A stretch of 64,000 bases of DNA, from positions 2,157 through 66,156 of the forward strand of contig JAUCBJ010000331.1 of assembly GCA_032718475.1 (NCBI GenBank), written 5' to 3'. Numbering within the stretch: the stretch's first letter is position 1; each line of letters opens with the position of its first letter. The position numbers and the translations under genes were made by a program. This DNA is from Nemertoderma westbladi. Lineage: Eukaryota; Animalia; Xenacoelomorpha. Positions 9,021-58,499 of this stretch are shown piece after piece. The notes beneath the pieces are model-generated. The model did no database searches, was not told the origin of the DNA, and saw nothing but the letters and a program-made list of their open reading frames with translations.

Positions 9021-9079
9021 ATGTCGGCAAAAAACATTTACTATTCGGATAAATATACGGATGAGGAATATGAATATCG
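9021..9079 (+). CDS. CKS1: Cyclin-dependent kinases regulatory subunit (Cks1/Cks2/suc1), coding exon 1
   Basis: ATG..MSAKNIYYSDKYTDEEYEY(R) followed by the donor GTAAGT at 9080 (phase 2). Matches the Cks family N-terminus IYYSDKY.DE.YEYR. Confidence 0.96.
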
Positions 9080-9384
9080 GTAAGTTGAATATCGGTAAAC
9101 TAAAGGCATAAAATTAACCTATTTCCTACTGCTGTACTTGTCAGGGATGTTAAGAGTTCTTTTTTATTCTCTTTTTCTTTATTATTTTAGGCCTATAATA
9201 AAAGAAAATTTTTATTTATATGATAATAATTTTAGCGAATTTATTTATTGATCATGTTTTTTTATTTATTACTGAATTAGCCTAAACTAATTACTGTCCT
9301 AACTGCCTAATGCTTTAAATTGGAGTTTTTAAATTAAAATTAAATTAATATTATAAATTTACATTAAAGCTACAGTGCTGCAGT

Positions 9385-9600
9385 GCTGCAATTGCAACAA
9401 ATCTATTTCTCGTATTTTACTTCTAAATATATTTAAACTGCGCGCATTTACAACATCTGGGGGAAAACTATTCCAAATCGGCACTGCACGTTTGGTTCGC
9501 AAAACAATACTTGATAATTTGTAGTCTACAATGATTAAAAAATAATTTAAGACCTTTGCCAAGGTATTATTACGGGAGGCACTAAAAAATTAATTGTTCG
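9385..9600 (-). pseudogene. CR1/L2-type LINE 3'-end remnant in Cks intron 1
   Basis: RAVPIWNSFPPDVVNARSLNIFRSKI matches the typical CR1-group C-terminal motif R...WN.LP..VV.A.SL..FK..L. Confidence 0.65.
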
Positions 9601-10018
9601 TTTAAAATAGAACTACTATAAAACTCCAAAAGTAGTGCATAATGAGAAAATGTAAGAGTAAGTGCTACTATTTTATTTCATTGCATGACCAAGGGTTGGA
9701 AGGGAGTGAAGGACACATAAACCTCTACAGTATTATTATATGTGATGTGACCGCAATAACATAATCAATGATGTTTAGCTAACACACTTGATATTAACAT
9801 AAATACATAAAAAAAATAATCTTATATGTTCTTTTATGGTCTTTTATATAAAATGAACAACCATTTAAAAATTATTATTTTAACATCCCTGCTACTGGCA
9901 GACTAATTAAATTGAGTGGAATTTCTGACATTATCCATCCACACTGCAGATAGGTACCGGTACAGAGCTATGGTTTAGGGTTCTGTCTGCTTTTACTAAA
10001 TAAATTATTTATTTACAG

Positions 10019-10109
10019 CCACGTTATTCTTCCTAAAGATTTAGCTAAATTGGTTCCAAAATCACATTTAATGACAGAAACGGAATGGCGAAACATCGGT
10101 GTGCAACAG
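10019..10109 (+). CDS. CKS1: Cks1/suc1 coding exon 2
   Basis: Acceptor ttatttatttacag at 10018. Encodes (R)[30 protein letters not shown], with donor CAG|GTGAGT at 10110 (phase 0). Phase is compatible with exon 1. Confidence 0.97.
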
Positions 10110-13100
10110 GTGAGTGAACGGAATGGCGAAACATCGGTGTGCAACAGGTGAGTGAATGGAATGGCGAAACTTCGGTGTGCAGCAGGTGAGTGAACGGAAT
10201 GGCGAAACATCGGTGTGCAACAGGTGAGTGAACGGAATGGCGAAACATCGGTGTGCAACAGGTGAGTGAACGGAATGGCGAAACATCGGTGTGCAGCAGG
10301 TGAGTGAACGGAATGGCGAAACATCGGTGTGCAACAGGTGAGTGAACGGAATGGCGAAACATTGGTGTGCAACAGGTGAGTGAATGGAATGGCGAAACAT
10401 CGGTGTGCAGCAGGTGAGTGAACGGAATGGCGAAACATCGGTGTGCAGCAGGTGAGTGAACGGAATGGCGAAACATCGGTGTGCAGCAGGTGAGTGAACG
10501 GAGTGGCGAAACATCGGTGTGCAACAGGTGAGTGAACGGAATGGCGAAACATTGGTGTGCAACAGGTGAGTGAACGGAATGGCGAAACATCGGTGTGCAA
10601 CAGGTGAGTGAACGGAATGGCGAAACATTGGTGTGCAACAGGTGAGTGAACGGAATGGCGAAACATCGGTGTGCAGCAGGTGAGTGAACGGAATGGCGAA
10701 ACATTGGTGTGCAACAGGTGAGTGAATGGAATGGCGAAACATCGGTGTGCAGCAGGTGAGTGAACGGAATGGCGAAACATCGGTGTGCAGCAGGTGAGTG
10801 AACGGAATGGCGAAACATCGGTGTGCAGCAGGTGAGTGAACGGAATGGCGAAACATTGGTGTGCAACAGGTGAGTGAACGGAATGGCGAAACATCGGTGT
10901 GCAACAGGTGAGTGAACGGAGTGGCGAAACATCGGTGTGCAGCAGGTGAGTGAACGGAATGGCGAAACATCGGTGTGCAGCAGGTGAGTGAACGGAATGG
11001 CGAAACATTGGTGTGCAACAGGTGAGTGAACGGAATGGCGAAACATCGGTGTGCAGCAGGTGAGTGAACGGAATGGCGAAACATCGGTGTGCAACAGGTG
11101 AGTGAACGGAATGGCGAAACATCGGTGTGCAACAGGTGAGTGAACGGAATGGCGAAACATCGGTGTGCAACAGGTGAGTGAACGGAATGGCGAAACATTG
11201 GTGTGCAACAGGTGAGTGAACGGAGTGGCGAAACATCGGTGTGCAGCAGGTGAGTGAACGGAATGGCGAAACATCGGTGTGCAGCAGGTGAGTGAACGGA
11301 ATGGCGAAACATTGGTGTGCAACAGGTGAGTGAACGGAATGGCGAAACATCGGTGTGCAGCAGGTGAGTGAACGGAATGGCGAAACATCGGTGTGCAACA
11401 GGTGAGTGAACGGAATGGCGAAACATCGGTGTGCAACAGGTGAGTGAACGGAATGGCGAAACATCGGTGTGCAACAGGTGAGTGAACGGAATGGCGAAAC
11501 ATCGGTGTGCAACAGGTGAGTGAACGGAATGGCGAAACATTGGTGTGCAACAGGTGAGTGAACGGAGTGGCGAAACATCGGTGTGCAGCAGGTGAGTGAA
11601 CGGAATGGCGAAACATCGGTGTGCAGCAGGTGAGTGAACGGAATGGCGAAACATTGGTGTGCAACAGGTGAGTGAACGGAATGGCGAAACATCGGTGTGC
11701 AGCAGGTGAGTGAACGGAATGGCGAAACATCGGTGTGCAACAGGTGAGTGAACGGAATGGCGAAACATCGGTGTGCAACAGGTGAGTGAACGGAATGGCG
11801 AAACATCGGTGTGCAACAGGTGAGTGAACGGAATGGCGAAACATTGGTGTGCAACAGGTGAGTGAACGGAGTGGCGAAACATCGGTGTGCAGCAGGTGAG
11901 TGAACGGAATGGCGAAACATCGGTGTGCAACAGGTGAGTGAACGGAATGGCGAAACATCGGTGTGCAGCAGGTGAGTGAACGGAGTGGAGAAACATTGGT
12001 GTGCAACAGGTGAGTGAACGGAATGGCGAAACATCGGTGTGCAACAGGTGAGTGAACGGAATGGCGAAACATCGGTGTGCAACAGGTGAGTGAACGGAAT
12101 GGCGAAACATTGGTGTGCAACAGGTGAGTGAACGGAGTGGCGAAACATCGGTGTGCAGCAGGTGAGTGAACGGAATGGCGAAACATCGGTGTGCAGCAGG
12201 TGAGTGAACGGAATGGCGAAACATTGGTGTGCAACAGGTGAGTGAACGGAATGGCGAAACATCGGTGTGCAACAGGTGAGTGAACGGAATGGCGAAACAT
12301 CGGTGTGCAACAGGTGAGTGAACGGAATGGCGAAACATCGGTGTGCAACAGGTGAGTGAACGGAATGGCGAAACATCGGTGTGCAACAGGTGAGTGAACG
12401 GAATGGCGAAACATCGGTGTGCAACAGGTGAGTGAACGGAATGGCGAAACATCGGTGTGCAACAGGTGAGTGAACGGAATGGCGAAACATTGGTGTGCAA
12501 CAGGTGAGTGAACGGAATGGCGAAACATCGGTGTGCAGCAGGTGAGTGAACGGAGTGGCGAAACATCGGTGTGCAGCAGGTGAGTGAACGGAATGGCGAA
12601 ACATCGGTGTGCAGCAGGTGAGTGAACGGAATGGCGAAACATTGGTGTGCAACAGGTGAGTGAACGGAATGGCGAAACATCGGTGTGCAGCAGGTGAGTG
12701 AACGGAATGGCGAAACATCGGTGTGCAGCAGGTGAGTGAACGGAATGGCGAAACATTGGTGTGCAACAGGTGAGTGAACGGAATGGCGAAACATCGGTGT
12801 GCAGCAGGTGAGTGAACGGAATGGCGAAACATCGGTGTGCAACAGGTGAGTGAACGGAATGGCGAAACATCGGTGTGCAGCAGGTGAGTGAACGGAATGG
12901 CGAAACATCGGTGTGCAACAGGTGAGTGAACGGAATGGCGAAACATCGGTGTGCAGCAGGTGAGTGAACGGAATGGCGAAACATCGGTGTGCAGCAGGTG
13001 AGTGAACGGAATGGCGAAACATCGGTGTGCAACAGGTGAGTGAACGGAATGGCGAAACATCGGTGTGCAGCAGGTGAGTGAACGGAATGGCGAAACATCG

Positions 13101-16100
13101 GTGTGCAGCAGGTGAGTGAACGGAATGGCGAAACATCGGTGTGCAGCAGGTGAGTGAACGGAATGGCGAAACATCGGTGTGCAGCAGGTGAGTGAACGGA
13201 ATGGCGAAACATCGGTGTGCAGCAGGTGAGTGAACGGAATGGCGAAACATTGGTGTGCAACAGGTGAGTGAACGGAATGGCGAAACATCGGTGTGCAGCA
13301 GGTGAGTGAACGGAATGGCGAAACATCGGTGTGCAGCAGGTGAGTGAACGGAGTGGCGAAACATCGGTGTGCAACAGGTGAGTGAACGGAATGGCGAAAC
13401 ATCGGTGTGCAACAGGTGAGTGAACGGAATGGCGAAACATTGGTGTGCAACAGGTGAGTGAACGGAATGGCGAAACATCGGTGTGCAGCAGGTGAGTGAA
13501 CGGAATGGCGAAACATCGGTGTGCAGCAGGTGAGTGAACGGAATGGCGAAACATTGGTGTGCAACAGGTGAGTGAACGGAATGGCGAAACATCGGTGTGC
13601 AGCAGGTGAGTGAACGGAATGGCGAAACATCGGTGTGCAACAGGTGAGTGAACGGAATGGCGAAACATCGGTGTGCAGCAGGTGAGTGAACGGAATGGCG
13701 AAACATCGGTGTGCAACAGGTGAGTGAACGGAATGGCGAAACATCGGTGTGCAACAGGTGAGTGAACGGAATGGCGAAACATCGGTGTGCAACAGGTGAG
13801 TGAACGGAATGGCGAAACATTGGTGTGCAACAGGTGAGTGAACGGAGTGGCGAAACATCGGTGTGCAGCAGGTGAGTGAACGGAATGGCGAAACATCGGT
13901 GTGCAACAGGTGAGTGAACGGAATGGCGAAACATCGGTGTGCAGCAGGTGAGTGAACGGAGTGGCGAAACATCGGTGTGCAGCAGGTGAGTGAACGGAAT
14001 GGCGAAACATCGGTGTGCAGCAGGTGAGTGAACGGAATGGCGAAACATTGGTGTGCAACAGGTGAGTGAACGGAATGGCGAAACATCGGTGTGCAGCAGG
14101 TGAGTGAACGGAATGGCGAAACATCGGTGTGCAGCAGGTGAGTGAACGGAATGGCGAAACATCGGTGTGCAACAGGTGAGTGAACGGAATGGCGAAACAT
14201 CGGTGTGCAGCAGGTGAGTGAACGGAGTGGCGAAACATCGGTGTGCAACAGGTGAGTGAACGGAGTGGCGAAACATCGGTGTGCAGCAGGTGAGTGAACG
14301 GAATGGCGAAACATCGGTGTGCAGCAGGTGAGTGAACGGAATGGCGAAACATTGGTGTGCAACAGGTGAGTGAACGGAATGGCGAAACATCGGTGTGCAG
14401 CAGGTGAGTGAACGGAATGGCGAAACATCGGTGTGCAGCAGGTGAGTGAACGGAATGGCGAAACATCGGTGTGCAACAGGTGAGTGAACGGAATGGCGAA
14501 ACATTGGTGTGCAACAGGTGAGTGAACGGAATGGCGAAACATCGGTGTGCAGCAGGTGAGTGAACGGAATGGCGAAACATTGGTGTGCAACAGGTGAGTG
14601 AACGGAATGGCGAAACATCGGTGTGCAACAGGTGAGTGAACGGAGTGGCGAAACATCGGTGTGCAGCAGGTGAGTGAACGGAATGGCGAAACATCGGTGT
14701 GCAGCAGGTGAGTGAACGGAATGGCGAAACATCGGTGTGCAACAGGTGAGTGAACGGAATGGCGAAACATTGGTGTGCAACAGGTGAGTGAACGGAATGG
14801 CGAAACATCGGTGTGCAGCAGGTGAGTGAACGGAATGGCGAAACATTGGTGTGCAACAGGTGAGTGAACGGAATGGCGAAACATCGGTGTGCAGCAGGTG
14901 AGTGAACGGAATGGCGAAACATCGGTGTGCAACAGGTGAGTGAACGGAGTGGCGAAACATCGGTGTGCAACAGGTGAGTGAACGGAATGGCGAAACATCG
15001 GTGTGCAGCAGGTGAGTGAACGGAATGGCGAAACATTGGTGTGCAACAGGTGAGTGAACGGAATGGCGAAACATCGGTGTGCAGCAGGTGTGTTAACGGA
15101 GTGGCGAAACATCGGTGTGCAACAGGTGAGTGAACGGAATGGCGAAACATCGGTGTGCAACAGGTGAGTGAACGGAGTGGCGAAACATCGGTGTGCAGCA
15201 GGTGAGTGAACGGAGTGGCGAAACATCGGTGTGCAGCAGGTGAGTGAACGGAATGGCGAAACATCGGTGTGCAGCAGGTGAGTGAACGGAATGGCGAAAC
15301 ATCGGTGTGCAGCAGGTGAGTGAACGGAATGGCGAAACATCGGTGTGCAACAGGTGAGTGAACGGAATGGCGAAACATCGGTGTGCAGCAGGTGAGTGAA
15401 CGGAATGGCGAAACATCGGTGTGCAACAGGTGAGTGAACGGAATGGCGAAACATCGGTGTGCAACAGGTGAGTGAACGGAATGGCGAAACATCGGTGTGC
15501 AACAGGTGAGTGAACGGAATGGCGAAACATCGGTGTGCAACAGGTGAGTGAACGGAATGGCGAAACATCGGTGTGCAACAGGTGAGTGAACGGAATGGCG
15601 AAACATCGGTGTGCAGCAGGTGAGTGAACGGAATGGCGAAACATTGGTGTGCAACAGGTGAGTGAACGGAATGGCGAAACATCGGTGTGCAGCAGGTGAG
15701 TGAACGGAATGGCGAAACATCGGTGTGCAACAGGTGAGTGAACGGAATGGCGAAACATCGGTGTGCAGCAGGTGAGTGAACGGAATGGCGAAACATCGGT
15801 GTGCAACAGGTGAGTGAACGGAATGGCGAAACATCGGTGTGCAACAGGTGAGTGAATGGAATGGCGAAACATCGGTGTGCAACAGGTGAGTGAACGGAAT
15901 GGCGAAACATCGGTGTGCAACAGGTGAGTGAACGGAGTGGCGAAACATCGGTGTGCAACAGGTGAGTGAACGGAGTGGCGAAACATCGGTGTGCAACAGG
16001 TGAGTGAACGGAGTGGCGAAACATTGGTGTGCAACAGGTGAGTGAACGGAGTGGCGAAACATCGGTGTGCAACAGGTGAGTGAACGGAGTGGCGAAACAT

Positions 16101-17573
16101 CGGTGTGCAACAGGTGAGTGAACGGAGTGGCGAAACATCGGTGTGCAGCAGGTGAGTGAACGGAATGGCGAAACATCGGTGTGCAACAGGTGAGTGAACG
16201 GAATGGCGAAACATCGGTGTGCAGCAGGTGAGTGAACGGAATGGCGAAACATCGGTGTGCAACAGGTGAGTGAACGGAATGGCGAAACATCGGTGTGCAA
16301 CAGGTGAGTGAACGGAATGGCGAAACATCGGTGTGCAACAGGTGAGTGAACGGAGTGGCGAAACATTGGTGTGCAACAGGTGAGTGAACGGAGTGGCGAA
16401 ACATCGGTGTGCAACAGGTGAGTGAACGGAGTGGCGAAACATCGGTGTGCAACAGGTGAGTGAACGGAGTGGCGAAACATCGGTGTGCAGCAGGTGAGTG
16501 AACGGAATGGCGAAACATCGGTGTGCAACAGGTGAGTGAACGGAATGGCGAAACATCGGTGTGCAACAGGTGAGTGAACGGAGTGGCGAAACATTGGTGT
16601 GCAACAGGTGAGTGAACGGAGTGGCGAAACATCGGTGTGCAACAGGTGAGTGAACGGAGTGGCGAAACATCGGTGTGCAACAGGTGAGTGAACGGAGTGG
16701 CGAAACATCGGTGTGCAGCAGGTGAGTGAACGGAATGGCGAAACATCGGTGTGCAACAGGTGAGTGAACGGAATGGCGAAACATCGGTGTGCAACAGGTG
16801 AGTGAACGGAGTGGCGAAACATTGGTGTGCAACAGGTGAGTGAACGGAGTGGCGAAACATCGGTGTGCAACAGGTGAGTGAACGGAGTGGCGAAACATCG
16901 GTGTGCAACAGGTGAGTGAACGGAGTGGCGAAACATCGGTGTGCAGCAGGTGAGTGAACGGAATGGCGAAACTTCGGTGTGCAGCAGGTGAGTGAACGGA
17001 ATGGCGAAACATCGGTGTGCAACAGGTGAGTGAACGGAATGGCGAAACATCGGTGTGCAACAGGTGAGTGAACGGAATGGCGAAACATCGGTGTGCAACA
17101 GGTGAGTGAACGGAGTGGCGAAACATTGGTGTGCAACAGGTGAGTGAACGGAGTGGCGAAACATCGGTGTGCAACAGGTGAGTGAACGGAGTGGCGAAAC
17201 ATCGGTGTGCAGCAGGTGAGTGAACGGAATGGCGAAACATTGGTGTGCAACAGGTGAGTGAACGGAATGGCGAAACATCGGTGTGCAACAGGTGAGTGAA
17301 CGGAGTGGCGAAACATTGGTGTGCAACAGGTGAGTGAACGGAGTGGCGAAACATCGGTGTGCAACAGGTGAGTGAACGGAGTGGCGAAACATCGGTGTGC
17401 AACAGGTGAGTGAACGGAGTGGCGAAACATCGGTGTGCAGCAGGTGAGTGAACGGAATGGCGAAACATTGGTGTGCAACAGGTGAGTGAACGGAATGGCG
17501 AAACATCGGTGTGCAGCAGGTGAGTGAACGGAGTGGCGAAACATTGGTGTGCAACAGGTGAGTGAACGGAATG
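10079..17573 (+). repeat. 38-bp tandem array (aacggaRtggcgaaacatYggtgtgcaRcaggtgagtg) x 197, derived from the exon 2/intron 2 junction
   Basis: First donor GT is at 10110 and the last at 17558. The difference, 7448 = 196 x 38, shows no net indel. The first unit is the real exon end. Confidence 0.98.
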
Positions 17574-17575
17574 AG

Positions 17576-20500
17576 TGATCCTACTTACCTACTTATGATC
17601 CTACTCAGCTACTTATGATCCTACTTACCTACTTATGATCCTACTTACCTACTTATGATCCTACTTACCTACTTATGATCCTACTTACCTACTTATGATC
17701 CTACTTACCTACTTATGATCCTACTTACCTACTTATGATCCTACTTACCTACTTATGATCCTACTTACCTACTTATGATCCTACTTACCTACTTATGATC
17801 CTACTCAGCTACTTATGATCCTACTTACCTACTTATGATCCTACTTACCTACTTATGATCCTACTCAGCTACTTATGATCCTACTTACCTACTTATGATC
17901 CTACTCAGCTACTTATGATCCTACTTACCTACTTATGATCCTACTCATCTACTTATGATCCTACTTACCTACTTATGATCCTACTTACCTACTTATGATC
18001 CTACTCTGCTACTTATGATCCTACTTACCTACTTATGATCCTACTTACCTACTTATGATCCTACTTACCTACTTATGATCCTACTTACCTACTTATGATC
18101 CTAATTACCTACTTATGATCCTACTTACCTACTTATGATCCTACTTACCTACTTATGATCCTACTCAGCTACTTATGATCCTACTTACCTACTTATGATC
18201 CTACTTACCTACTTATGATCCTACTCAGCTACTTATGATCCTACTTACCTACTTATGATCCTACTTACCTACTTATGATCCTACTTACCTACTTATGATC
18301 CTACTTACCTACTTATGATCCTACTTACCTACTTATGATCCTACTTACCTACTTATGATCCTACTCTGCTACTTATGATCCTACTTACCTACTTATGATC
18401 CTACTTACCTACTTATGATCCTACTTACCTACTTATGATCCTACTTACATACTTATGATCCTACTTACCTACTTATGATCCTACTCAGCTACTTATGATC
18501 CTACTTACCTACTTATGATCCTACCCAGCTACTTATGATCCTACTCAGCTACTTATGATCCTACATTCCTACTTATGATCCTACTCAGCTACTTATGATC
18601 CTACTTACCTACTTATGATCCTACTCAGCTACTTATGATCCTACTTACCTACTTATGATCCTACGTACCTACTTATGATCCTACTCAGCTACTTATGATC
18701 CTACTTACCTACTTATGATCCTACTCAGCTACTTATGATCCTACTTACCTACTTATGATCCTACTTACCTACTTATGATCCTACTCATCTACTTATGATC
18801 CTACTTACCTACTTATGATCCTACTTATGATCCTACTTACCTACTTATGATCCTACTTACCTACTTATGATCCTACTTACCTACTTATGATCCTACTTAC
18901 CTACTTATGATCCTACTTACCTACTTATGATCCTACTTACCTACTTATGATCCTACTTACCTACTTATGATCCTACTTACCTACTTATGATCCTACTTAC
19001 CTACTTATGATCATACTTACCTACTTATGATCCTACTTACCTACTTATGATCCTACTTACCTACTTATGATCCTACTTACCTACTTATGATCCTACTTAC
19101 CTACTTATGATCCTACTTACCTACTTATGATCCTACTTACCTACTTATGATCCTACTCATCTACTTATGATCCTAATTACCTACTTATGATCCTACTCAT
19201 CTACATATGATCCTACTTACCTACATATGATCCTACTTACCTACTTATGATCCTACTTACCTACTTATGATCCTACTTACCTACTTATGATCCTACTTAC
19301 CTACTTATGATCCTACTTACCTACTTATGATCCTACTTACCTACTTATGATCCTACTTACCTACTTATGATCCTACTTACCTACTTATGATCCTACTTAC
19401 CTACTTATGATCCTACTTACCTACTTATGATCCTACTTACCTACTTATGATCCTACTTACCTACTTATGATCCTACTTAGCTACTTATGATCCTACTTAC
19501 CTACTTATGATCCTACTTACCTACTTATGATCCTACTTACCTACTTATGATCCTACTTACCTACTTATGATCCTACTTACCTACTTATGATCCTACTTAC
19601 CTACTTATGATCCTACTTACCTACTTATGATCCTACTTACCTACTTATGATCCTACTTACCTACTTATAATCCTACTTACCTACTTATGATCCTACTTAC
19701 CTACTTATGATCCTACTTACCTACTTATGATCCCACTTACCTACTTATGATCCTACTTACCTACTTATGATCCTACTTACCTACTTATGATCCTACTCAG
19801 CTACTTATGATCCTACTTACCTACTTATGATCCTACTTACCTACTTATGATCCTACACAGCTACTTATGATCCTACTTACCTACTTATGATCCTACTTAC
19901 CTACTTATGATCCTACTTACCTACTTATGATCCTACTTACCTACTTATGATCCTACTTACCTACTTATGATCCTACTTACCTACTTATGATCCTACTTAC
20001 CTACTTATGATCCTACTTACCTACTTATGATCCTACTTACCTACTTATGATCCTACTTACCTACTTATGATCCTACTTACCTACTTATGATCCTACTCAC
20101 CTACTTATGATCCTACTTACCTACTTATGATCCTACTTACCTACTTATGATCCTACTTACCTACTTATGATCCTACTTACCTACTTATGATCCTACTTAC
20201 CTACTTATGATCCTACTTACCTACTTATGATCCTACTCACCTACTTATGATCCTACTTACCTACTTATGATCCTACTTACCTACTTATGATCCCACTTAC
20301 CTACTTATGATCCTACTTACCTACTTATGATCCTACTTACCTACTTATGATCCTACTTACCTACTTATGATCCTACTCAGCTACTTATGATCCTACTCAG
20401 CTACTTATGATCCTACTTACCTACTTATGATCCTACTTACCTACTTATGATCCTACTTACCTACTTATGATCCTACTTACCTACTTATGATCCTACTTAC

Positions 20501-23500
20501 CTACTTATGATCCTACTTACCTACTTATGATCCTACTTACCTACTTATGATCCTACTCAGCTACTTATGATCCTACTCAGCTACTTATGATCCTACTTAC
20601 CTACTTATGATCCTACTTACCTACTTATGATCCTACTTACCTACTTATGATCCTACTTACCTACTTATGATCCTACTTACCTACTTATGATCCTACTTAC
20701 CTACTTATGATCCTACTTACCTACTTATGATCCTACTCAGCTACTTATGATCCTACTTACCGACTTATGATCCTACTCAGCTACTTATGATCCTACTTAC
20801 CTACTTATGATCCTACTTACCTACTTATGATCCTACTTACCTACTTATGATCCTACTTACCTACTTATGATCCTACTTACCTACTTATGATCCTACTTAC
20901 CTACTTATGATCCTACTTACCTACTTATGATCCTACTTACCTACTTATGATCCTACTTACCTACTTATGATCCTACTTACCTACTTATGATCCTACTTAC
21001 CTACTTATGATCCTACTTACCTACTTATGATCCTACACAGCTACTTATGATCCTACTTACCTACTTATGATCCTACTTACCTACTTATGATCCTACTTAC
21101 CTACTTATGATCCTACTTACCTACTTATGATCCTACTTACCTACTTATGATCCTACTTACCTACTTATGATCCTACTTACCTACTTATGATCCTACTTAC
21201 CTACTTATGATCCTACTTACCTACTTATGATCCTACTTACCTACTTATGATCCTACTTACCTACTTATGATCCTACTCAGCTACTTATGATCCTACTTAC
21301 CTACTTATGATCCTACTTACCTACTTATGATCCTACTTACCTACTTATGATCCTACTTACCTACTTATGATCCTACTTACCTACTTATGATCCTACTTAC
21401 CTACTTATGATCCTACTTACCTACTTATGATCCTACTTACCTACTTATGATCCTACTCAGCTACTTATGATCCTACTTACCGACTTATGATCCTACTCAG
21501 CTACTTATGATCCTACTTACCTACTTATGATCCTACTTACCTACTTATGATCCTACTTACCTACTTATGATCCTACTTACCTACTTATGATCCTACTTAC
21601 ATACTTATGATCCTACTTACCTACTTATGATCCTACTTACCTACTTATGATCCTACTCAGCTACTTATGATCCTACTTACCTACTTATGATCCTACTCAG
21701 CTACTTATGATCCTACTTACCTACTTATGATCCTACATACCTACTTATGATCCTACTCAGCTACTTATGATCCTACTTACCTACTTATGATCCTACTTAC
21801 CTACTTATGATCCTACTCAGCTACTTATGATCCTACTTACCTACTTATGATCCTACTTACCTACTTATGATCCTACTTACCTACTTATGATCCTACTTAC
21901 ATACTTATGATCCTACTTACCTACTTATGATCCTACTTACCTACTTATGATCCTACTTACCTACTTATGATCCTACTTACCTACTTATGATCCTACTCAT
22001 CTACTTATGATCCTACTTACCTACTTATGATCCTACTTAGGATCCTACTTACCTACTTATGATCCTACTTACCTACTTATGATCCTACTTACCTACTTAT
22101 GATCCTACTTACCTACTTATGATCCTACTTACCTACTTATGATCCTACTTACCTACTTATGATCCTACTTACCTACTTATGATCCTACTTACCTACTTAT
22201 GATCCTACTTACCTACTTATGATCCTACTTACCTACTTATGATCCTACTTACCTACTTATGATCCTACTTACCTACTTATGATCCTACTTACCTACTTAT
22301 GATCCTACTTACCTACTTATGATCCTACTCAGCTACTTATGATCCTACTTACCTACTTATGATCCTACTCAGCTACTTATGATCCTACTTACCTACTTAT
22401 GATCCTACATACCTACTTATGATCCTACTCAGCTACTTATGATCCTACTTACCTACTTATGATCCTACTTACCTACTTATGATCCTACTCAGCTACTTAT
22501 GATCCTACTTACCTACTTATGATCCTACTTACCTACTTATGATCCTACTTACCTACTTATGATCCTACTTACATACTTATGATCCTACTTACCTACTTAT
22601 GATCCTACTTACCTACTTATGATCCTACTTACCTACTTATGATCCTACTTACCTACTTATGATCCTACTCATCTACTTATGATCCTACTTACCTACTTAT
22701 GATCCTATTTAGGATCCTACTTACCTACTTATGATCCTACTTACCTACTTATGATCCTACTTACCTACTTATGATCCTACTTACCTACTTATGATCCTAC
22801 TTACCTACTTATGATCCTACTTACCTACTTATGATCCTACTTACCTACTTATGATCCTACTTACCTACTTATGATCCTACTTACCTACTTATGATCCTAC
22901 TTACCTACTTATGATCCTACTTACCTACTTATGATCCTACTTACCTACTTATGATCCTACTCATCTACTTATGATCCTACTTACCTACTTATGATCCTAC
23001 TCATCTACTTATGATCCTACTTACCTACTTATGATCCTACTCAGCTACTTATGATCCTACTTACCTACTTATGATCCTACTTACCTACTTATGATCCTAC
23101 TTACCTACTTATGATCCTACTTACCTACTTATGATCCTACTTACCTACTTATGATCCTACTTACCTACTTATGATCCTACTTACCTACTTATGATCCTAC
23201 TCAGCTACTTATGATCCTACTTACCCACTTATGATCCTACTTACCTACTTATGATCCTACTTACCTACTTATGATCCTACTTACCTACTTATGATCCTAC
23301 TTACCTACTTATGATCCTACTCAGCTACTTATGATCCTACTTACCTACTTATGATTCTACTTACCTACTTATGATCCTACTCAGCTACTTATGATCCTAC
23401 TTACCTACTTATGATCCTACTTACCTACTTATGATCCTACTTATCTACTTATGATCCTACTTACCTACTTATGATCCTACTTACCTACTTATGATCCTAC

Positions 23501-26500
23501 TTACCTACTTATGATCCTACTTACCTACTTATGATCCTACTTACCTACTTATGATCCTACTTACCTACTTATGATCCTACTTACCTACTTATGATCCTAC
23601 TCAGCTACTTATGATCCTACTTACCTACTTATGATCCTACTTACCTACTTATGATCCTACTTACCTACTTATGATCCTACTTACCTACTTATGATCCTAC
23701 TTACCTACTTATGATCCTACTCATCTACTTATGATCCTACTTACCTACTTATGATCCTACTCATCTACTTATGATCCTACTTACCTACTTATGATCCTAC
23801 TTACCTACTTATAATCCTACTTACCTACTTATGATCCTACTCATCTACTTATGATCCTACTTACCTACTTATGATCCTACTCATCTACTTATGATCCTAC
23901 TTACCTACTTATGATCCTACTTACCTACTTATGATCCTACTCAGCTACTTATGATCCTACTTACCTACTTATGATCCTACTTACCTACTTATGATCCTAC
24001 TTACCTACTTATGATCCTACTTACCTACTTATGATCCTACTTACCTACTTATGATCCTACTTACCTACTTATGATCCTACTCATCTACTTATGATCCTAC
24101 TTACCTACTTATGATCCTACTCATCTACTTATGATCCTACTTACCTACTTACCTACGGTCACCCTTCACAAAACTCACCTGTCTAAGGAAGAGTTCCGCG
24201 ACGCTCTGTGTCTGCGCTACGGCTGGCAACCGAAGTCGCTCCCTTCTCGTTGTGTCTGTGGGGAACGATTTTCCCCTTCACACGTCCTGTCGTGCCCCAC
24301 CGGGGGTTATCCCTCGATAAGGCACAACGAGATACGCGATTTCGTTGCCGACGCGCTAACTGAAGTAGCCCACAACGTCGCAGTAGAGCCAGCACTCCAG
24401 CCTCTTAACAGGTGAGGAGTTCACCCACAGATCCACCTCCACAGAAGATCAGGCGAGGTTGGACGTCTCTGTCAGCGGGTTCTGGGGTGGCCGGTTCGAG
24501 AAGACTTACTTCGACGTCTCGGTCTACAACCCTCTAGCGGCCACCAACGCAGCCATGACCACCGAGGGCGCTTATTCCCACCACGAGGCGCGGAAACGCC
24601 TGAAGTACGAGGAGCGCATCCGAGAGGTCGAACTGTCGTCGTTTGTGCCTCTGATACTTTCAGCCTTTGGTGGTACCGCGCCAGCGATGCAACAGTTCGT
24701 TAAGCGTTTATCGCTTAAACTCTCGGATCGTCGCGACCTCAGCTACTCTGAGTGTATCTGCTGGACGCGGAGGAAGATAAGCTTCGCGCTTCTCCGCTCC
24801 AGTTTGATGTGTCTCCGTGGAGCGAGATCCGCCACCAAACGCCCTGTTTATCATCAGGTGTCCGCAGACTCGATTCGCCTGACTAACGCTGATACCAACA
24901 CCGGCTAGACTGACTGTCAGTGGTAGTCATAGGCCTCTAAACAGGCCCTTCTTTCTTTATTTATTATTTTTTTTTATTATCGGTATCGGTGTAGGAATTA
25001 TTCATTTTGTTCTATTAATAAAGTGCCTGTAAAAGAGTTATGCTGATATTGTGCAAATTATATAATAAACTAGTAACTTAAAAAAAAAAAAAAACTTACC
25101 TACTTATGATCCTACTCAGCTACTTATGATCCTACTTACCTACTTATGATCCTACTTACCTACTTATGATCCTACTTACCTACTTATGATCCTACTTACC
25201 TACTTATGATCCTACTTACCTACTTATGATCCTAATTACCTACTTATGATCCTACTTACCTACTTATGATCCTACTTACCTACTTATGATCCTACTCACC
25301 TACTTATGATCCTACTTACCTACTTATGATCCTACTTACCTACTTATGATCCTACTCAGCTACTTATGATCCTACTTACCTACTTATGATCCTACTTACC
25401 TACTTATGATCCTACTTACCTACTTATGATCCTACTTACCTACTTATGATCCTACTTACCTACTTATGATCCTACTTACCTACTTATGATCCTACTTACC
25501 TACTTATGATCCTACTTACCTACTTATGATCCTACTTACCTACTTATGATCCTACTTACCTACTTATGATCCTACTTACCTACTTATGATCCTACTTACC
25601 TACTTATGATCCTACTCATCTACTTATGATCCTACTTACCTACTTATGATCCTACTCATCTACTTATGATCCTACTTACCTACTTATGATCCTACTCAGC
25701 TACTTATGATCCTACTTACCTACTTATGATCCTACTTACCTACTTATGATATCCTACTTACCTACTTATGATCCTACTTACCTACTTATGATCCTACTTA
25801 CCTACTTATGATCCTACTTACCTACTTATGATCCTACTTACCTACTTATGATCCTACTTACCTACTTATGATCCTACTCACCTACTTATGATCCTACTTA
25901 CCTACTTATGATCCTACTTACCTACTTATGATCCTACTTACCTACTTATGATCCTACTCACCTACTTATGATCCTACTTACCTACTTATGATCCTACTCG
26001 GCTACTTATGATCCTACTTACCTACTTATGATCCTACTCATCTACTTATGATCCTACTTACCTACTTATGATCCTACTTACCTACTTATAATCCTACTTA
26101 CCTACTTATGATCCTACTCATCTACTTATGATCCTACTTACCTACTTATGATCCTACTCATCTACTTATGATCCTACTTACCTACTTATGATCCTACTTA
26201 CCTACTTATGATCCTACTCAGCTACTTATGATCCTACTTACCTACTTATGATCCTACTTACCTACTTATGATCCTACTCAGCTACTTATGATCCTACTTA
26301 CCTACTTATGATCCTACTTACCTACTTATGATCCTACTTACCTACTTATGATCCTACTTACCTACTTATGATCCTACTTACCTACTTATGATCCTACTCA
26401 GCTACTTATGATCCTACTTACCTACTTATGATCCTACATTCCTACTTACCTACTTATGATCCTACTTGCCTACTTATGATCCTACTCAGCTACTTATGAT

Positions 26501-29500
26501 CCTACTTACCTACTTATGATCCTACTTACCTACTTATGATCCTACTTACCTACTTATGATCCTACTTACCTACTTATGATCCTACTTACCTACTTATGAT
26601 CCTACTTACCTACTTATGATCCTACTTACCTACTTATGATCCTACTTACCTACTTATGATCCTACTTACCTACTTATGATTCTACTTACCTACTTATGAT
26701 CCTACTTATGATCCTACTTACCTACTTATGATCCTACTTACCTACTTATGATCCTACTTACCTACTTATGATCCTACTTACCTACTTATGATCCTACTTA
26801 CCTACTTATGATCCTACTTACCTACTTATGATCCTACTTACCTACTTATGATCCTACTTACCTACTTATAATTCTACTTACCTACTTATGATCCTACTTA
26901 TGATCCTACTTACCTACTTATGATCCTACTTACCTACTTATGATCCTACTTACCTACTTATGACCCTACTTACCTACTTATGATCCTAATTACCTACTTA
27001 TGATCCTACTCATCTACTTATGATCCTACTTACCTACTTATGATCCTACTTACCTACTTATGATCCTACTTACCTACTTATGATCCTACTTACCTACTTA
27101 TGATCCTACTTACCTACTTATGATCCTACTTATGATCCTACTTACCTACTTATGATCCTACTTACCTACTTATGATCCTACTTACCTACTTATGATCCTA
27201 CTTACCTACTTATGATCCTACTTACCTACTTATGATCCTACTTTCCTACTTATGATCCTACTTACCTACTTATGATCCTACTCAGCTACTTATGATCCTA
27301 CTTACCTACTTATGATCCTACTTACCTACTTATGATCCTACTACAGCTACTTATGATCCTACTTACCTACTTATGATCCTACTTACCTACTTATGATCCT
27401 ACTTACCTACTTATGATCCTACTTACCTACTTATGATCCTACTTACCTACTTATGATCCTACTTACCTACTTATGATCCTACTTACCTACTTATGATCCT
27501 ACTTACCTACTTATGATCCTACTTACCTACTTATGATCCTACTTACCTACTTATGATCCTACTCAGCTACTTATGATCCTACTTACCTACTTATGATCCT
27601 ACTCACCTACTTATGATCCTACTTACCTACTTATGATCCTACTTACCTACTTATGATCCTACTTACCTACTTATGATCCTACTTACCTACTTATGATCCT
27701 ACTCAGCTACTTATGATCCTACTTACCTACTTATGATCCTACTTACCTACTTATGATCCTACTTACCTACTTATGATCCTACTTACCTACTTATGATCCT
27801 ACTTACCTACTTATGATCCTACTTACCTACTTATGATCCTACTTACCTACTTATGATCCTACTCAGCTACTTATGATCCTACTTACCTACTTATGATCCT
27901 ACTTACCTACTTATGATCCTACTTACCTACTTATGATCCTACTTACCTACTTATGATCCTACTTACCTACTTATGATCCTACGTACCTACTTATGATCAT
28001 AATCAGCTACTTATGATCCTACTTACCTACTTATGATCCTACTTACCTACTTATGATCCTACTCAGCTACTTATGATCCTACTTACCTACTTATGATCCT
28101 ACTTACCTACTTACCTACTTATGATCCTACTTACCTACTTATGATCCTACTTATGATCCTACTTACCTACTTATGATCCTACTTACCTACTTATGATCCT
28201 ACTTACCTACTTATGATCCTACTTATGATCCTACTTACCTACTTATGATCCTACTCAGCTACTTATGATCCTACTTACCTACTTATGATCCTACTTACCT
28301 ACTTATGATCCTACTTACCTACTTATGATCCTACTTACCTACTTATGATCCTACTCACCTACTTATGATCCTACTTACCTACTTATGATCCTACTCATCT
28401 ACTTATGATCCTACTTACCTACTTATGATCCTACTTACCTACTTATGATCCTACTTACCTACTTATGATCCTACTTACCTACTTATGATCCTACTTACCT
28501 ACTTATGATCCTACTTACCTACTTATGATCCTACTTACCTACTTATGATCCTACTTACCTACTTATGATCCTACTTACCTACTTATGATCCTACTCACCT
28601 ACTTATGATCCTACTTACCTACTTATGATCCTACTCAGCTACTTATGATCCTACTTACCTACTTATGATCCTACTTACCTACTTATGATCCTACTTACCT
28701 ACTTATGATCCTACTTACCTACTTATGATCCTACTTACCTACTTATGATCCTACTTACCTACTTATGATCCTACTTACCTACTTATGATCCTACTTACCT
28801 ACTTATGATCCTACTTACCTACTTATGATCCTACTTACCTACTTATGATCCTACTTACCTACTTATGATCCTACTTACCTACTTATGATCCTACTCACCT
28901 ACTTATGATCCTACTTACCTACTTATGATCCTACTCCTACTTATGATCCTACTTACCTACTTATGATCCTACTCATCTACTTATGATCCTACTTACCTAC
29001 TTATGATCCTACTTACCTACTTATGATCCTACTTACCTACTTATGATCCTACTCACCTACTTATGATCCTACTTACCTACTTATGATCCTACTCATCTAC
29101 TTATGATCCTACTTACCTACTTATGATCCTACTTACCTACTTATGATCCTACTCACCTACTTATGATCCTACTTACCTACTTATGATCCTACTTACCTAC
29201 TTATGATCCTACTCAGCTACTTATGATCCTACTTACCTACTTATGATCCTACTTACCTACTTATGATCCTACTTACCTACTTATGATCCTACTTACCTAC
29301 TTATGATCCTACTTACCTACTTATGATCCTACTCAGCTACTTATGATCCTACTTACCTACTTATGATCCTACATTCCTACTTACCTACTTATGATCCTAC
29401 TTACCTACTTATGATCCTACTCAGCTACTTATGATCCTACTTACCTACTTATGATCCTACTTACCTACTTATGATCCTACTTACCTACTTATGATCCTAC

Positions 29501-32500
29501 TTACCTACTTATGATCCTACTTACCTACTTATGATCCTACTTACCTACTTATGATCCTACTTACCTACTTATGATCCTACTTACCTACTTATGATCCTAC
29601 TTACCTACTTATGATTCTACTTACCTACTTATGATCCTACTTATGATCCTACTTACCTACTTATGATCCTACTTACCTACTTATGATCCTACTTACCTAC
29701 TTATGACCCTACTTACCTACTTATGATCCTACTTACCTACTTATGATCCTACTTACCTACTTATGATCCTACTTACCTACTTATGATCCTACTTACCTAC
29801 TTATAATTCTACTTACCTACTTATGATCCTACTTATGATCCTACTTACCTACTTATGATCCTACTTACCTACTTATGATCCTACTTACCTACTTATGACC
29901 CTACTTACCTACTTATGATCCTACTTACCTACTTATGATCCTACTCATCTACTTATGATCCTACTTACCTACTTATGATCCTACTTACCTACTTATGATC
30001 CTACTTACCTACTTATGATCCTACTTACCTCCTTATGATCCTACTTACCTACTTATGATCCTACTTATGATCCTACTTACCTACTTATGATCCTACTTAC
30101 CTACTTATGATCCTACTTACCTACTTATGATCCTACTTACCTACTTATGATCCTACTTACCTACTTATGATCCTACTTTCCTACTTATGATCCTACTTAC
30201 CTACTTATGATCCTACTCAGCTACTTATGATCCTACTTACCTACTTATGATCCTACTTACCTACTTATGATCCTACACAGCTACTTATGATCCTACTTAC
30301 CTACTTATGATCCTACTTACCTACTTATGATCCTACTTACCTACTTATGATCCTACTTACCTACTTATGATCCTACTTACCTACTTATGATCCTACTTAC
30401 CTACTTATGATCCTACTTACCTACTTATGATCCTACTTACCTACTTATGATCCTACTTACCTACTTATGATCCTACTTACCTACTTATGATCCTACTCAG
30501 CTACTTATGATCCTACTTACCTACTTATGATCCTACTCAGCTACTTATGATCCTACTTACCTACTTATGATCCTACTTACCTACTTATGATCCTACTTAC
30601 CTACTTATGATCCTACTTACCTACTTATGATCCTACTCAGCTACTTATGATCCTACTTACCTACTTATGATCCTACTTACCTACTTATGATCCTACTTAC
30701 CTACTTATGATCCTACTTACCTACTTATGATCCTACTTACCTACTTATGATCCTACTTACCTACTTATGATCCTACTTACCTACTTATGATCCTACTCAG
30801 CTACTTATGATCCTACTTACCTACTTATGATCCTACTTACCTACTTATGATCCTACTTACCTACTTATGATCCTACTTACCTACTTATGATCCTACTTAC
30901 CTACTTATGATCCTACGTACCTACTTATGATCATAATCAGCTACTTATGATCCTACTTACCTACTTATGATCCTACTTACCTACTTATGATCCTACTCAG
31001 CTACTTATGATCCTACTTACCTACTTATGATCCTACTTACCTACTTACCTACTTATGATCCTACTTACCTACTTATGATCCTACTTATGATCCTACTTAC
31101 CTACTTATGATCCTACTTACCTACTTATGATCCTACTTACCTACTTATGATCCTACTTATGATCCTACTTACCTACTTATGATCCTACTCAGCTACTTAT
31201 GATCCTACTTACCTACTTATGATCCTACTTACCTACTTATGATCCTACTTACCTACTTATGATCCTACTTACCTACTTATGATCCTACTCATCTACTTAT
31301 GATCCTACTTACCTACTTATGATCCTACTCATCTACTTATGATCCTACTTACCTACTTATGATCCTACTTACCTACTTATAATCCTACTTACCTACTTAT
31401 GATCCTACTCATCTACTTATGATCCTACTTACCTACTTATGATCCTACTCATCTACTTATGATCCTACTTACCTACTTATGATCCTACTTACCTACTTAT
31501 GATCCTACTCAGCTACTTATGATCCTACTTACCTACTTATGATCCTACTTACCTACTTATGATCCTACTTACCTACTTATGATCCTACTTACCTACTTAT
31601 GATCCTACTTACCTACTTATGATCCTACTTACCTACTTATGATCCTACTTACCTACTTATGATCCTACTTATGATCCTACTTACCTACTTATGATCCTAC
31701 TTACCTACTTATGATCCTACTTACCTACTTATGATCCTACTTACCTACTTATGATCCTACTTACCTACTTATGATCCTACTTACCTACTTATGATCCTAC
31801 TTACCTACTTATGATCCTACTCATCTACTTATGATCCTACTTACCTACTTATGATCCTACTCATCTACTTATGATCCTACTTACCTACTTATGATCCTAC
31901 TCAGCTACTTATGATCCTACTTACCTACTTATGATCCTACTTACCTACTTATGATCCTACTTACCTACTTATGATCCTACTTACCTACTTATGATCTTAC
32001 TTACCTACTTATGATCCTACTTACCTACTTATGATCCTACTTACCTACTTATGATCCTACTTACCTACTTATGATCCTACTCAGCTACTTATGATCCTAC
32101 TTACCTACTTATGATCCTACTTACCTACTTATGATCCTACTTACCTACTTATGATCCTACTTACCTACTTATGATCCTACTTACCTACTTATGATCCTAC
32201 TCAGCTACTTATGATCCTACTTACCTACTTATGATCCTACTTACCTACTTATGATCCTACTTACCTACTTATGATCCTACTTACCTACTTATGATCCTAC
32301 TTACCTACTTATGATCCTACTTACCTACTTATGATCCTACTTACCTACTTATGATCCTACTCAGCTACTTATGATCCTACTTACCTACTTATGATCCTAC
32401 TTACCTACTTATGATCCTACTTACCTACTTATGATCCTACTTACCTACTTATGATCCTACTTACCTACTTATGATCCTACTTACCTACTTATGATCCTAC

Positions 32501-32704
32501 TTACCTACTTATGATCCTACTTACCTACTTATGATCCTACTTATCTACTTATGATCCTACTTACCTACTTATGATCCTACTTACCTACTTATGATCCTAC
32601 TTACCTACTTATAATCCTACTTACCTACTTATGATCCTACTTACCTACTTATAATCCTACTTACCTACTTATGATCCTACTTACCTACTTATGATCCTAC
32701 TTAC
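17576..32704. repeat. 20-bp satellite (tgatcctacttacctactta) x ~710, interrupted by a LINE at 24152-25094
   Basis: Directly visible. Variants include ctcagct, ctcatct, ctcacct and 12-bp short units; larger duplicated blocks are present. Confidence 0.98.
24152..25094 (+). mobile_element. 5'-truncated CRE-clade-like non-LTR retrotransposon (CCHC + restriction-like endonuclease), poly(A) tail, 12-bp TSD
   Basis: Encodes CVCGERFSPSHVLSC, RHNEIRD, VEP, RLDV..GFW..YFDVSV, K..KY and FVPL..SAFGG, with a frameshift near 24407 and a stop at 24908. AATAAA and an A15 tail follow. cttacctactta flanks both sides (24140-24151 and 25095-25106). Confidence 0.88.
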
Positions 32705-32887
32705 TTGGTTAGGAAACACCGTCAATGTAACCTGCTCCTTCCCCTTAATGGTTTAATTTCAATAAATTTATATTTTTTCAAATAATTGCAATTCCGAAAT
32801 CTAGAAATCGTTATGACGTCATTATAATTGATAGCTAGATTTCTCGAAGGGCCGCCGTTTAGTAATTTAGTTTTTTTTTTATTCCAG

Positions 32888-33010
32888 AGCCAAGGCTGGA
32901 TCCATTACATGATGCATGAACCGGAACCCCATATCCTGTTGTTCCGCAGAGCAGCTCCGGGTCAAACAGCTGCTCAATCAAAGCAATCAGTCGTGCAGAA
33001 AGTCCATTAA
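32888..33010 (+). CDS. CKS1: Cks1/suc1 coding exon 3
   Basis: [21 protein letters not shown]... contains the diagnostic [12 protein letters not shown] hinge motif, with TAA at 33008-33010. The spliced product is 90 aa. Confidence 0.97.
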
Positions 33011-41300: not shown

Positions 41301-41346
41301 TAACTGCTCTGGTCTGTAACTGCTTTGGTCTGTAACTGCTCTGGTC
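35338..41346. repeat. 16-bp satellite (gtctgtaactgctctg) x ~370 with variant units and duplicated blocks
   Basis: Directly visible. Confidence 0.97.
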
Positions 41347-41425
41347 GGGTGGTCCAAGCTGAGTACAATACCTACGAGGAACTGTTTTACGACATCGCGT
41401 ATCTAGCCATCGACGAGGCGTTACA

Positions 41426-43981: not shown

Positions 43982-44000
43982 TCTTATAAATCGCCGCTAC

Positions 44001-53645: not shown

Positions 53646-53742
53646 TGGTAACATCAACCCCAATACCAAATAGGGTGACATTCCCCCATTACAATATCAG
53701 CAATATACCCAACCAAGACCAAGAACAAAAACCCCAAACCCC

Positions 53743-56700: not shown

Positions 56701-58499
56701 CTAGCATCCCCACTGTTAGTCACGGGGAAGCAACTATTAAAGAAAGTATACAAGTTAAAGGATGAATGGGATACAGAAGTCCCGGAAGAAATAAGTAGAC
56801 AGTGGAGCAAGTGGACGTGGAGTCTAGAGGAGATGGGGACGTACAGCATGCCACGCGTGTATTTCCCGGACGGAGACATGACGGACCTGGATCTACACAT
56901 GTTTTCCGATGCATCTTTGGAAGCATATGGAGCGGCACTTTATTTGGTACAGCGAAAGGGGGCTCATAAGCCCAGACTTGCATTTAGTAAAGCAAAGTTG
57001 ACGCCACCAGATTCAGCATCAGTGCCGAAACTCGAGCTGACAGCTGCGAGGTTAGGAGCAAGGGCCACAGCTTACTTGAGGGACACTATACCTAACATAG
57101 TGGAGACACACTACTGGACGGACTCCATGGTTGTGTTAGGGTGGCTACATAACGAGAAGACGAGATACCCTATATTCGTCGCGAATAGGATAAACGAGAT
57201 AAGGGCGACGACTGACCTAGAAAGGTGGCATTATTGCCCTACCGACGAGATTCCAGCAGATCTGTTATCGAGGCGCGTTGCACGCTGCACCTTTTCGAAG
57301 AAGGAAGAGTTGTGGCAACACGGGCCACACTTCCTTAATGATAGATCAGCATGGCCACCAATGAGGAAGGTGGACCCTGGCTCAGAGGAAGTAGTAGCAG
57401 AAGAGGAGGGGAAAGATCCAGAAGGGGAAGAGATATATAGCCAGTTGGAGAGGGAGATCAAGGAAGTGCCACCGAGATCAGAAGATCCATGTGATAATCC
57501 AACAGATAGGTTTCTCAGTTACAGCTCCAGCTGGTAGCATATTGGAGGGCCTACGGGGATTTCCTTAGGGGAGTTGGCAAGGATGCCAAAAGGAAACCAA
57601 CCATCGATCTGGAAGGAGCGGCTATAGCCATAATGCGATACGAGCAAAGAAAGGAGTACGCTGACGAAGTGGACAGAGTTAGCAAGCAACAACACCTTCG
57701 TCGAGACAGCGAACTCAAAACGCTGTCCCCGCAGTTGAACGAGGACGGGATTCTGGTGATGAATTCCAGAGTGGTGAACAATAACAGCTTAGTTATCCCA
57801 CCAAAACCCATAATAATCCCCAATAAATCACCAATAGTCCACCAGATCATATGGGACTCGCATAAATCGATACTACACGGAGGCACGAATCAGATACGAA
57901 GATACGAAGGACCTTCTGGATCACCCAACTTAGGAAGAAGGTGAAGGCGGTAGTGGGGCAGTGCCAGACCTGCCGACGGACGAGAAAGGAGAGGGCCGTA
58001 CAGGAGATGGCGCCATTACCGGCCAACAGAGTGAGACAACACGACCCGCCATTCACGCACTGCGGCGTGGACATGTTCGTGCCGATTAAGATAAAGGTGA
58101 TGCGGCATACGGAGAAACGCTACGGCATTATCTTTGTCTGCAACAACACAAGAGCGGTGGGAATAGAACTTGCGCAGGGCTACGGCATCGGCATTTATTA
58201 ATGCCTTAGAAAGATTTGTAAGCCACAAAGGGGGAACACTCAAGGTGATATATTCAGATAATGGGACCAACTTCGTGTGAGCGGAGAATGAGTTGAAGAA
58301 GGGTGACTTGGTAATCGTCACTGACGACACAATTTTCAATAACCAATGGAGACTAGCGAGAGTGGTAGATACTTACCCCGACGAGGGCGGAAGAGTCCGG
58401 TTGTTGGAAGTGAGGATAGGAGGCAAGATAGGGGCCAAAGATAGGAAGACATACAGGAGGGCTGTGGGAAAGTGCTGCCTATTGGAAGGGGCACCTTAG
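53743..58499 (+). pseudogene. BEL/Pao element 2, decayed gag-pol
   Basis: Motifs LPPVEPFKFDG, LVDSGA, FYVDD, FSDAS..PKLEL..YWTDS, GVDMF and SDNGTNF. In-frame stops at 55135, 56410 and 57535, several frameshifts, and a deletion in integrase near 58292. Confidence 0.93.

Follow-up and report, generated by a model that had tools for sequence, protein, structure and literature searches.

What shapes sequence variation in copies of an exon end that lie within an intron? The question is raised by a 64,000-nucleotide (nt) stretch of the genome of Nemertoderma westbladi (GenBank assembly GCA_032718475.1, contig JAUCBJ010000331.1, positions 2,157 to 66,156 of the forward strand; hereafter referred to as the window, in whose coordinates all positions are given). 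The window carries, on the + strand, a Cks gene with three exons, and the junction between exon 2 and intron 2 of this gene is the first copy of a 38-base-pair (bp) minisatellite with 197 full units. A preliminary description of the sequence had reported that the frequent variants among the units are silent in the Cks reading frame and polarised along the array. It proposed either that new units are generated at the exon end and archive past exon alleles, or that units cycle into the exon by unequal crossover or gene conversion and are filtered by protein selection. Here we report the structure of the array, the variants of its units, the donor used in RNA and a polymorphism that is common to the working exon and the array. 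The reading that we favour, and hold with about as much doubt as belief, is that silent alleles of the exon, taken up through unequal exchange at a time when the array was still small and then amplified in blocks, account for the common variants.

The 38-bp array at the exon 2 donor of Cks

The gene and the array comprise the following features, in which a slash marks an exon end.

9021..9079, + strand: coding part of Cks exon 1, MSAKNIYYSDKYTDEEYEY plus the first 2 nt of an Arg codon, with the donor CG/GTAAGT; from RNA contigs.
10019..10109, + strand: Cks exon 2, 91 nt, from its translation, the Pfam CKS match and the RNA joint; array unit 1 takes its exonic part from the last 31 nt.
10110..32887, + strand: Cks intron 2, 22,778 nt, of which ~190 nt are unique and the remainder is the 38-bp array and an adjoining 20-bp array.
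32888..33010, + strand: coding part of Cks exon 3, ending in ...VH and then the stop codon; from the Pfam CKS match, and equal to the RNA contig ends.
10079..17573, + strand: 38-bp minisatellite, 197 units and a 9-nt partial unit; from Tandem Repeats Finder (TRF) and from cutting at 38-nt steps.
10079..10116, + strand: array unit 1, the working exon end and the donor in use (CAG/GTGAGTG), in frame with exon 2 and abutting the unique flank.

The host gene is a member of the CKS family. Both of the exons that match the Pfam CKS profile (cyclin-dependent kinase regulatory subunit, PF01111) score above its curated cut-off of 27 bits, exon 2 over profile positions 16–45 (44.3 bits, E = 2e-11) and exon 3 over positions 46–67 (39.6 bits, E = 5.9e-10), and the profile is contiguous over the splice joint, where positions 45 and 46 meet.

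The transcript was followed in two sequencing runs, X4 and X6, which are not listed as RNA in the index and contain spliced contigs; this evidence is at the level of contigs, from which rare isoforms and variants may drop out. Contigs of both runs skip 9079–10018 and thereby join exon 1 to exon 2 (9078/9079 to 10018/10019, GT..AG), and spliced contigs (three records in X4 and one in X6, with two and one, respectively, in a second comparison) pass from exon 2 at 10109 directly to the start of exon 3. At this level the mRNA uses only the first donor of the array, and the rule that the most upstream site is chosen holds. No contig with an extra array unit was found among the X4 and X6 spliced contigs that were compared with the array, among which rare forms may be missed. 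If a donor further along were used, the message would lengthen in steps of 38 nt and take in an in-frame TGA, before which 13 codons are read after the exon end.

TRF assigned the array a period of 38, 197.2 copies and 0% indels, and when it was cut at each 38 nt, all 197 full units stayed perfectly in register, with zero indels. A unit joins the final 31 nt of Cks exon 2 to GTGAGTG, which results in 196 unused copies of the donor. The repeated unit spans the exon–intron boundary, and its first copy is the authentic exon end with its splice site, as in the minisatellites of the type found in intervening sequence 7 (IVS7) of human F7 and in the mirages of amphioxus, with which the array is compared below. 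At the other end, the 9-nt partial unit leads straight into AGTGATCC, the first letters of the 20-bp array. A metagenome scan for the 38-bp unit, with the three most variable sites left open, returned 0 matches.

Over 7,486 nt, eight of the 38 unit positions are variable.

Position 3, C>T: 4 units; ACG>ATG, Thr>Met.
Position 7, A>G: 44 units; GAA>GAG, silent.
Position 11, C>A: 1 unit (unit 51, base 11989); CGA>AGA, silent.
Position 17, A>T: 2 units; ATC>TTC, Ile>Phe.
Position 19, C>T: 38 units; ATC>ATT, silent, at a CpG.
Position 28, A>G: 77 units; CAA>CAG, silent.
Positions 35, A>T, and 38, G>T: both in unit 132, in the donor part.

The common variants each occupy 19–39% of the units and the rare ones 1–4 units each; the rare sites, with one silent, two replacement and two donor changes, look random. 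The counts bear out the preliminary description in that the three frequent sites are silent and at third codon positions, that the rare CGA>AGA change is silent too, and that non-synonymous forms are few. Its account of the variants had left out just unit 132.

At positions 7, 19 and 28 the units fall into six types, A-C-A (64 units), A-C-G (59), A-T-A (30), G-C-A (18), G-C-G (18) and G-T-A (8). The exon type, A-C-A, is the most frequent and forms the centre of the unit network, and the second commonest, A-C-G, bears G28, the allele of a minor mRNA contig that is described below. The combination of T19 with G28 occurs in none of the 38 T19 units. Base pairing between positions 19 and 28 was considered as the cause and rejected, as the non-pairing C-A combination is the commonest (82 units) and the wobble pair T-G is the absent one.

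In the DNA run X1, the contig specific to A-C-G units has a depth of 1414, compared with 18–23 for the single-copy flank, which corresponds to ~61–79 copies versus the 59 assembled. The assembly of the array is not grossly collapsed by this measure, for which X1, like the DNA run X2 (both as k=31 contigs), may be the very source of the assembly.

The minus strand of the array (10013–17588) is stop-free in all three frames, with lengths of 2523, 2511 and 1674 + 831 amino acids; the single stop comes from the variant of unit 132. Coding by these frames was rejected, as a stop-free 38-mer is expected by chance in ~16% of cases and the frames have no RNA support. For gene prediction, the array is a trap.

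Silent variants and their possible sources

Among the changes that are possible at the 31 exonic positions of the unit, 20 of 93 are silent, and among the transitions 10 of 31. That three of three common sites should be silent has a probability of P = 0.006–0.027 under all of the nulls applied, which ranged from a transition/transversion ratio of 1 to transitions only, with a CpG weight of 1–20-fold and with or without the 7 donor positions. A null of GC-biased conversion, under which silent transitions are available at 5 of 18 A/T positions, gives P ~0.02 (calculated by hand). When all exonic variable sites are taken, 4 of 6 are silent, with P between 0.022, when every change is allowed, and 0.09, when transitions alone are, and given 4 silent sites among the 8 variable ones, the probability that the top three are all silent is P = 0.071. 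The third-position excess suspected in the preliminary description is nominally significant against nulls that allow for transitions and CpG, at a number of sites, three, that still leaves room for chance.

The exon shares one of these variants.

10106, + strand: CAA/CAG polymorphism at unit position 28 in the exon copy; from two X4 mRNA contigs.

The working exon is polymorphic in the X4 sample, and the CAA/CAG polymorphism is common to the exon and the array. Two 60-nt contigs from 10076 differ by one letter; the one with a depth of 6000 fits the A-C-A unit and the one with a depth of 1121.7 fits the A-C-G unit, each with 0 mismatches, and both continue into exon 3. The share of CAG in the X4 exon is ~16%, and CAA/CAG is the sole difference seen over the ~180 nt of exons 1 and 2 that are covered in X4. 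A very recent paralogue that mimics an exon polymorphism is unlikely, because the 30-nt flanks are identical on both sides. In DNA, the flank-anchored contig of run X2 ends at 10105, one base short of the CAA/CAG site, and that of X1 reaches 10108; the X2 sample may possibly be heterozygous at the exon site.

An independent array with published sequences allows the same count. Mirages, described in amphioxus, are minisatellite-like tandem duplications of exon–intron boundaries, and include cases in the globin genes BflGb6 and BflGb9 (Ebner et al. 2010, PMC3087553; this and the other papers cited here are represented by the parts available to us). From the alignment of the BflGb6 mirage in two haplotypes (Additional file 4 of PMC3087553), we counted differences by hand, in the frame given by the stated intron phase, which is the only stop-free one. 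The true exon alleles differ at five sites, all of them silent. Copies D3–D5 show six differences from their own exon, again all silent, and at three of these they match the other exon allele. D1 has five silent and three replacement differences and an in-frame 6-nt insertion, D2 has six silent and two replacement differences, and D1 and D2 of haplotype 2 have four silent codons and one replacement; the boundary copies are degenerate. The inner copies hold 13 silent versus 4 replacement distinct substitutions (P = 7.6e-6, 3e-4 and 2.5e-3 at silent shares of 0.24, 0.33 and 0.40, respectively), and 8 versus 4 when the five sites shared with exon alleles are removed (P = 0.0095 to 0.057).

Capture of silent exon alleles, we infer, fits both the Cks array and the amphioxus globin array. 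On this account, the 38-bp minisatellite would have grown out of the Cks exon 2/intron 2 junction, and the young array of few units would have paired mostly with chromosomes that carried the exon alone. Misaligned exchange or conversion at the few-unit stage could have imported variation that was protein-selected and hence silent, because exon alleles had already passed protein selection. Block amplification would have multiplied these early silent variants to their present high shares, and the rare variants would be later random mutations in a very large array, beyond the reach of protein selection.

Several observations weigh against this account. The silent test rests on n = 3 sites, which were noticed post hoc and were each multiplied by block amplification, and all three common variants are transitions, one of them at a CpG. 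Common and rare variable sites stand at 3:5 (0.6, compared with 0.42 expected), which is near the spectrum of neutral turnover, so no special source of common variants is required. The shared CAA/CAG would be equally expected if a neutral array variant had moved into the exon, and shows exchange rather than its direction. When the three variants were sought as exon alleles, CAG was found in the X4 RNA, and only A and C were seen at exon positions 7 and 19 (a 278-nt X4 contig and X6), that is, GAG and ATT were not seen in contigs, which drop rare variants. Furthermore, the globin count was made by eye, on a small acceptor-side array rather than on a donor-side one of 197 units.

A rival explanation is chance together with mutation bias, by which the common variants (two A>G changes and one CpG C>T) arose in the array itself and drifted up by block amplification, and the CAG exon allele is a neutral variant that was brought into unit 1 by unequal crossover. 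The modest P values for a pattern picked post hoc and the neutral ratio of common to rare sites favour this explanation, the unit frequencies reflect a few block amplifications rather than many independent events, and the non-coding 20-bp array likewise has some high-frequency variants (65, 28 and 11 of ~700 units). It leaves the avoidance of 21 replacement transitions and 7 donor positions by the common variants to coincidence, and the same silent excess in the independent amphioxus array, hand-counted at P = 7.6e-6 to 2.5e-3, speaks against it. We consider this explanation a serious possibility, if one that we are inclined to doubt.

The arrangement of the units bears on the other explanations. 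Higher-order repeats with a lag of 8–9 units are present in units 20–70, and with a lag of 6 units in units 155–197.

15931..17564, + strand: distal domain, units 155–197, a 6-unit higher-order repeat GTA GCA GCA GCG ACA ACA (positions 7/19/28) with a lag-6 identity of 0.49, which holds 26 of the 44 GAG units.

These repeats mark block duplication by unequal exchange or slippage. With eight variable positions in 7,486 nt and a higher-order periodicity, the array displays block turnover, or concerted evolution, of its units. We assessed polarity within one assembled allele, using Fisher tests that assume independent units, which the units of an array are not. The distal clustering of GAG that had been described is present, at 26 of 43 in units 155–197 versus 18 of 154 before them. 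Polarisation as a property of the variants, however, extends to GAG only, as ATT is flat (9/43 distal versus 29/154, p = 0.83) and CAG has the opposite gradient (9/43 distal versus 68/154, p = 0.0075). Similarly, the statement that proximal units mostly match the exon holds at the GAA/GAG site (136 of 154 are GAA) and fails for whole units; the exon-type A-C-A units have no gradient (52/154 proximal versus 12/43 distal, p = 0.58), with seven among the first 25 compared with 64 of all 197. Units with private mutations show no gradient either (1/43 distal versus 6/154 proximal). From the 6-unit higher-order structure of the distal domain, we infer that its many GAG units stem from a single block amplified locally and do not represent a time axis.

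Continuing purifying selection would require that inner units cycle into the exon by contraction or conversion, and that replacement-rich arrays are weeded out. Exchange with the exon happens or has happened, given the shared CAA/CAG, and the replacement and donor variants are all rare (1–4 of 197 units), both of which accord with such a filter. The replacement variants, however, lie nearest the exon, in the place of greatest hazard, with units 3, 9 and 18 among their carriers (3 of the first 18 units versus 2 of the other 179, p = 0.006 in a naive test) and with two replacement variants in unit 3. Moreover, we reason that only exchanges that break in unit 1, ~1/197 of them, are visible to selection, so selection on the inner units would be very weak, with a tiny coefficient. 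This explanation is improbable.

The probability is lower still for a polar conveyor belt, in which new units originate solely at the exon end and displace the earlier ones outward, so as to form a time-ordered archive with the oldest units at the distal end. Human minisatellites are said, after Jeffreys and co-workers, to mutate preferentially at one end, and the concentration of GAG in the last 43 units would suit such a process. Variant units nevertheless alternate over the whole array without forming age blocks, ATT has no gradient and that of CAG is reversed, exon-type units are not enriched proximally, private mutations are not commoner distally, and the regular 6-unit repeat at the distal end points to recent local amplification.

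The least credible explanation, which we all but dismiss, is that the copies are not inert and that use of later donors or translation of the array puts them under direct codon constraint: all 196 further donors except that of unit 132 are identical to the used one and no frame of the minus strand is closed by stops in the standard unit, but a 38-nt unit does not preserve the reading frame, translation continued past the exon reaches a TGA after 13 codons, straight-through reading places each variant site in all three codon positions, an extra-unit RNA contig was not seen in X4 or X6 (in which contigs can miss rare forms), and a stop-free strand of a 38-mer arises by chance at the rate given above.

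The preliminary interpretation is thus partly supported. Exchange between exon and intronic copies stands, on the shared CAA/CAG of the X4 exon and the published amphioxus array; the outward archiving of units made at the exon end does not, in view of the interspersed variant units and the absence of gradients among exon-type and private units; and the selection filter is unproven, continuing selection on inner units not being supported by the position of the replacement variants nearest the exon.

Returning to the capture of silent exon alleles, we advance a general rule tentatively, with doubt slightly the heavier: minisatellites at exon boundaries archive silent exon alleles, their common variants being protein-filtered and their rare variants unfiltered new mutations. 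Such arrays would originate, and for some time be replenished, through misaligned exchange between chromosomes that differ in their silent exon alleles. If the rule is true, the arrays could serve to reconstruct former pools of alleles and the pace at which arrays grow. A general silent bias would imply that functional exon alleles supply the material of these arrays and exchange sequence with them, and would provide a handle on interallelic unequal exchange and array age, and on the possible origin of new exons or introns from duplicated splice junctions, an idea discussed in the available part of PMC3087553.

Neighbouring repeats and the rest of the window

The remainder of intron 2 is dominated by a second array.

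17576..32704, + strand: 20-bp array, ~757 units, with its start at intron position +6, immediately next to the 38-bp array; 89% matches, with indels.

On the minus strand, AGGTAAGTA in each standard unit of this array is a perfect 5′ splice-site consensus, and the unit variants in which TTACC is replaced by TCAGC (65 units), TCATC (28) or TCACC (11) abolish the motif. At ~24135–25110 the array contains a 975-bp insertion that ends in an A-run and resembles the tail of a 5′-truncated retroposon; a 173-amino-acid open frame within it (24387–24908) had no Pfam match. Because the 20-bp array is interrupted by this insertion, it is older than the insertion-free 38-bp array.

A tandem duplication is also present at the donor of exon 1. 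In 9072–9100, GAATATCG followed by GTAAGTT forms the used donor (exon end 9079), and GAATATCGGTAAAC follows directly, so that junction duplications occur at both Cks donors. Within intron 1, DNA contigs of X1 and X2 (depths of 35 and 30, compared with 18–26 nearby) connect 9163 to 9829 with 9 other letters between them. This joint represents either an intron 1 allele that lacks 665 bp or other copies of a repeat.

Two further arrays flank the gene, neither with a visible link to an exon: one upstream of Cks, at 2564–2861, has a 24-bp unit, 12.4 copies and 100% identity, and the other, at 35341–41346 downstream of the Cks stop codon, has a 16-bp unit and ~371 copies. Beyond the latter, two retroelements of the BEL/Pao type lie on the + strand (41363–48116 and 53674–57537), with DUF1759, Peptidase_A17, an integrase zinc-binding domain and DUF5641; the second is split into three frames.

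Comparison with known boundary minisatellites

A close counterpart of the Cks array is in human F7, in which a 37-bp minisatellite of 5–9 copies has its first monomer over the exon 7/intron 7 boundary, and the most upstream donor alone is used, the identical downstream donors being silent (Borensztajn et al. 2006, PMC1557585). In the available part, the same paper lists further human boundary minisatellites in 6-16, CBS IVS13, LMNB2 and PDGF, of which the largest named has 25 pseudo-sites. The two arrays are alike in that the first unit is the true exon end with its donor, in that this first donor is the one used, and in unit length (37 versus 38 bp). They differ in scale and in content: F7 has 5–9 copies with 4 exonic nt per unit, whereas the Cks array extends over 7.5 kb in 197 units, each with 31 coding nt. 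The available part of PMC1557585 does not mention how the F7 units vary at silent and replacement sites.

The mirages of amphioxus were founded on the case of Adh3 (Canestro et al. 2002, as cited in PMC3087553 and PMC3902484), and those in TnC and PGBD5 were added by PMC3902484. In the available parts of these accounts, mirages share with the Cks array the tandem repetition of an exon end together with the adjacent splice signal, the maintenance of normal splicing, and concerted evolution from which the boundary units are exempt. By contrast, they have two to a few copies with units of 10–160 bp, and the BflGb6 array counted here is on the acceptor side. Neither a literature search nor the available part of PMC3087553, in which the words 'synonymous', 'silent' and 'third codon' are absent, yielded a statement on the pattern of silent variants in such arrays, and the possible rule that silent exon alleles are what their common variants represent appears to be undescribed.

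For human hypervariable minisatellites, analysed by mapping of variant repeats, interallelic processes have been described (PMC2599865, in the part available). The Cks array resembles these loci in its interspersed variant units, its blocks, its interallelic turnover and a variant density that differs between its ends. They are non-coding, however, and their polarity is defined across alleles and mutants, whereas the Cks array is one assembled allele.

The Cks array is thus a large new case of a known kind, to which the F7 IVS7-type minisatellites of human and the mirages of amphioxus belong. With 31 of 38 nt coding, its units permit a test for protein selection on intronic copies of an exon end, for which the 4 exonic nt of the human F7 unit do not suffice.

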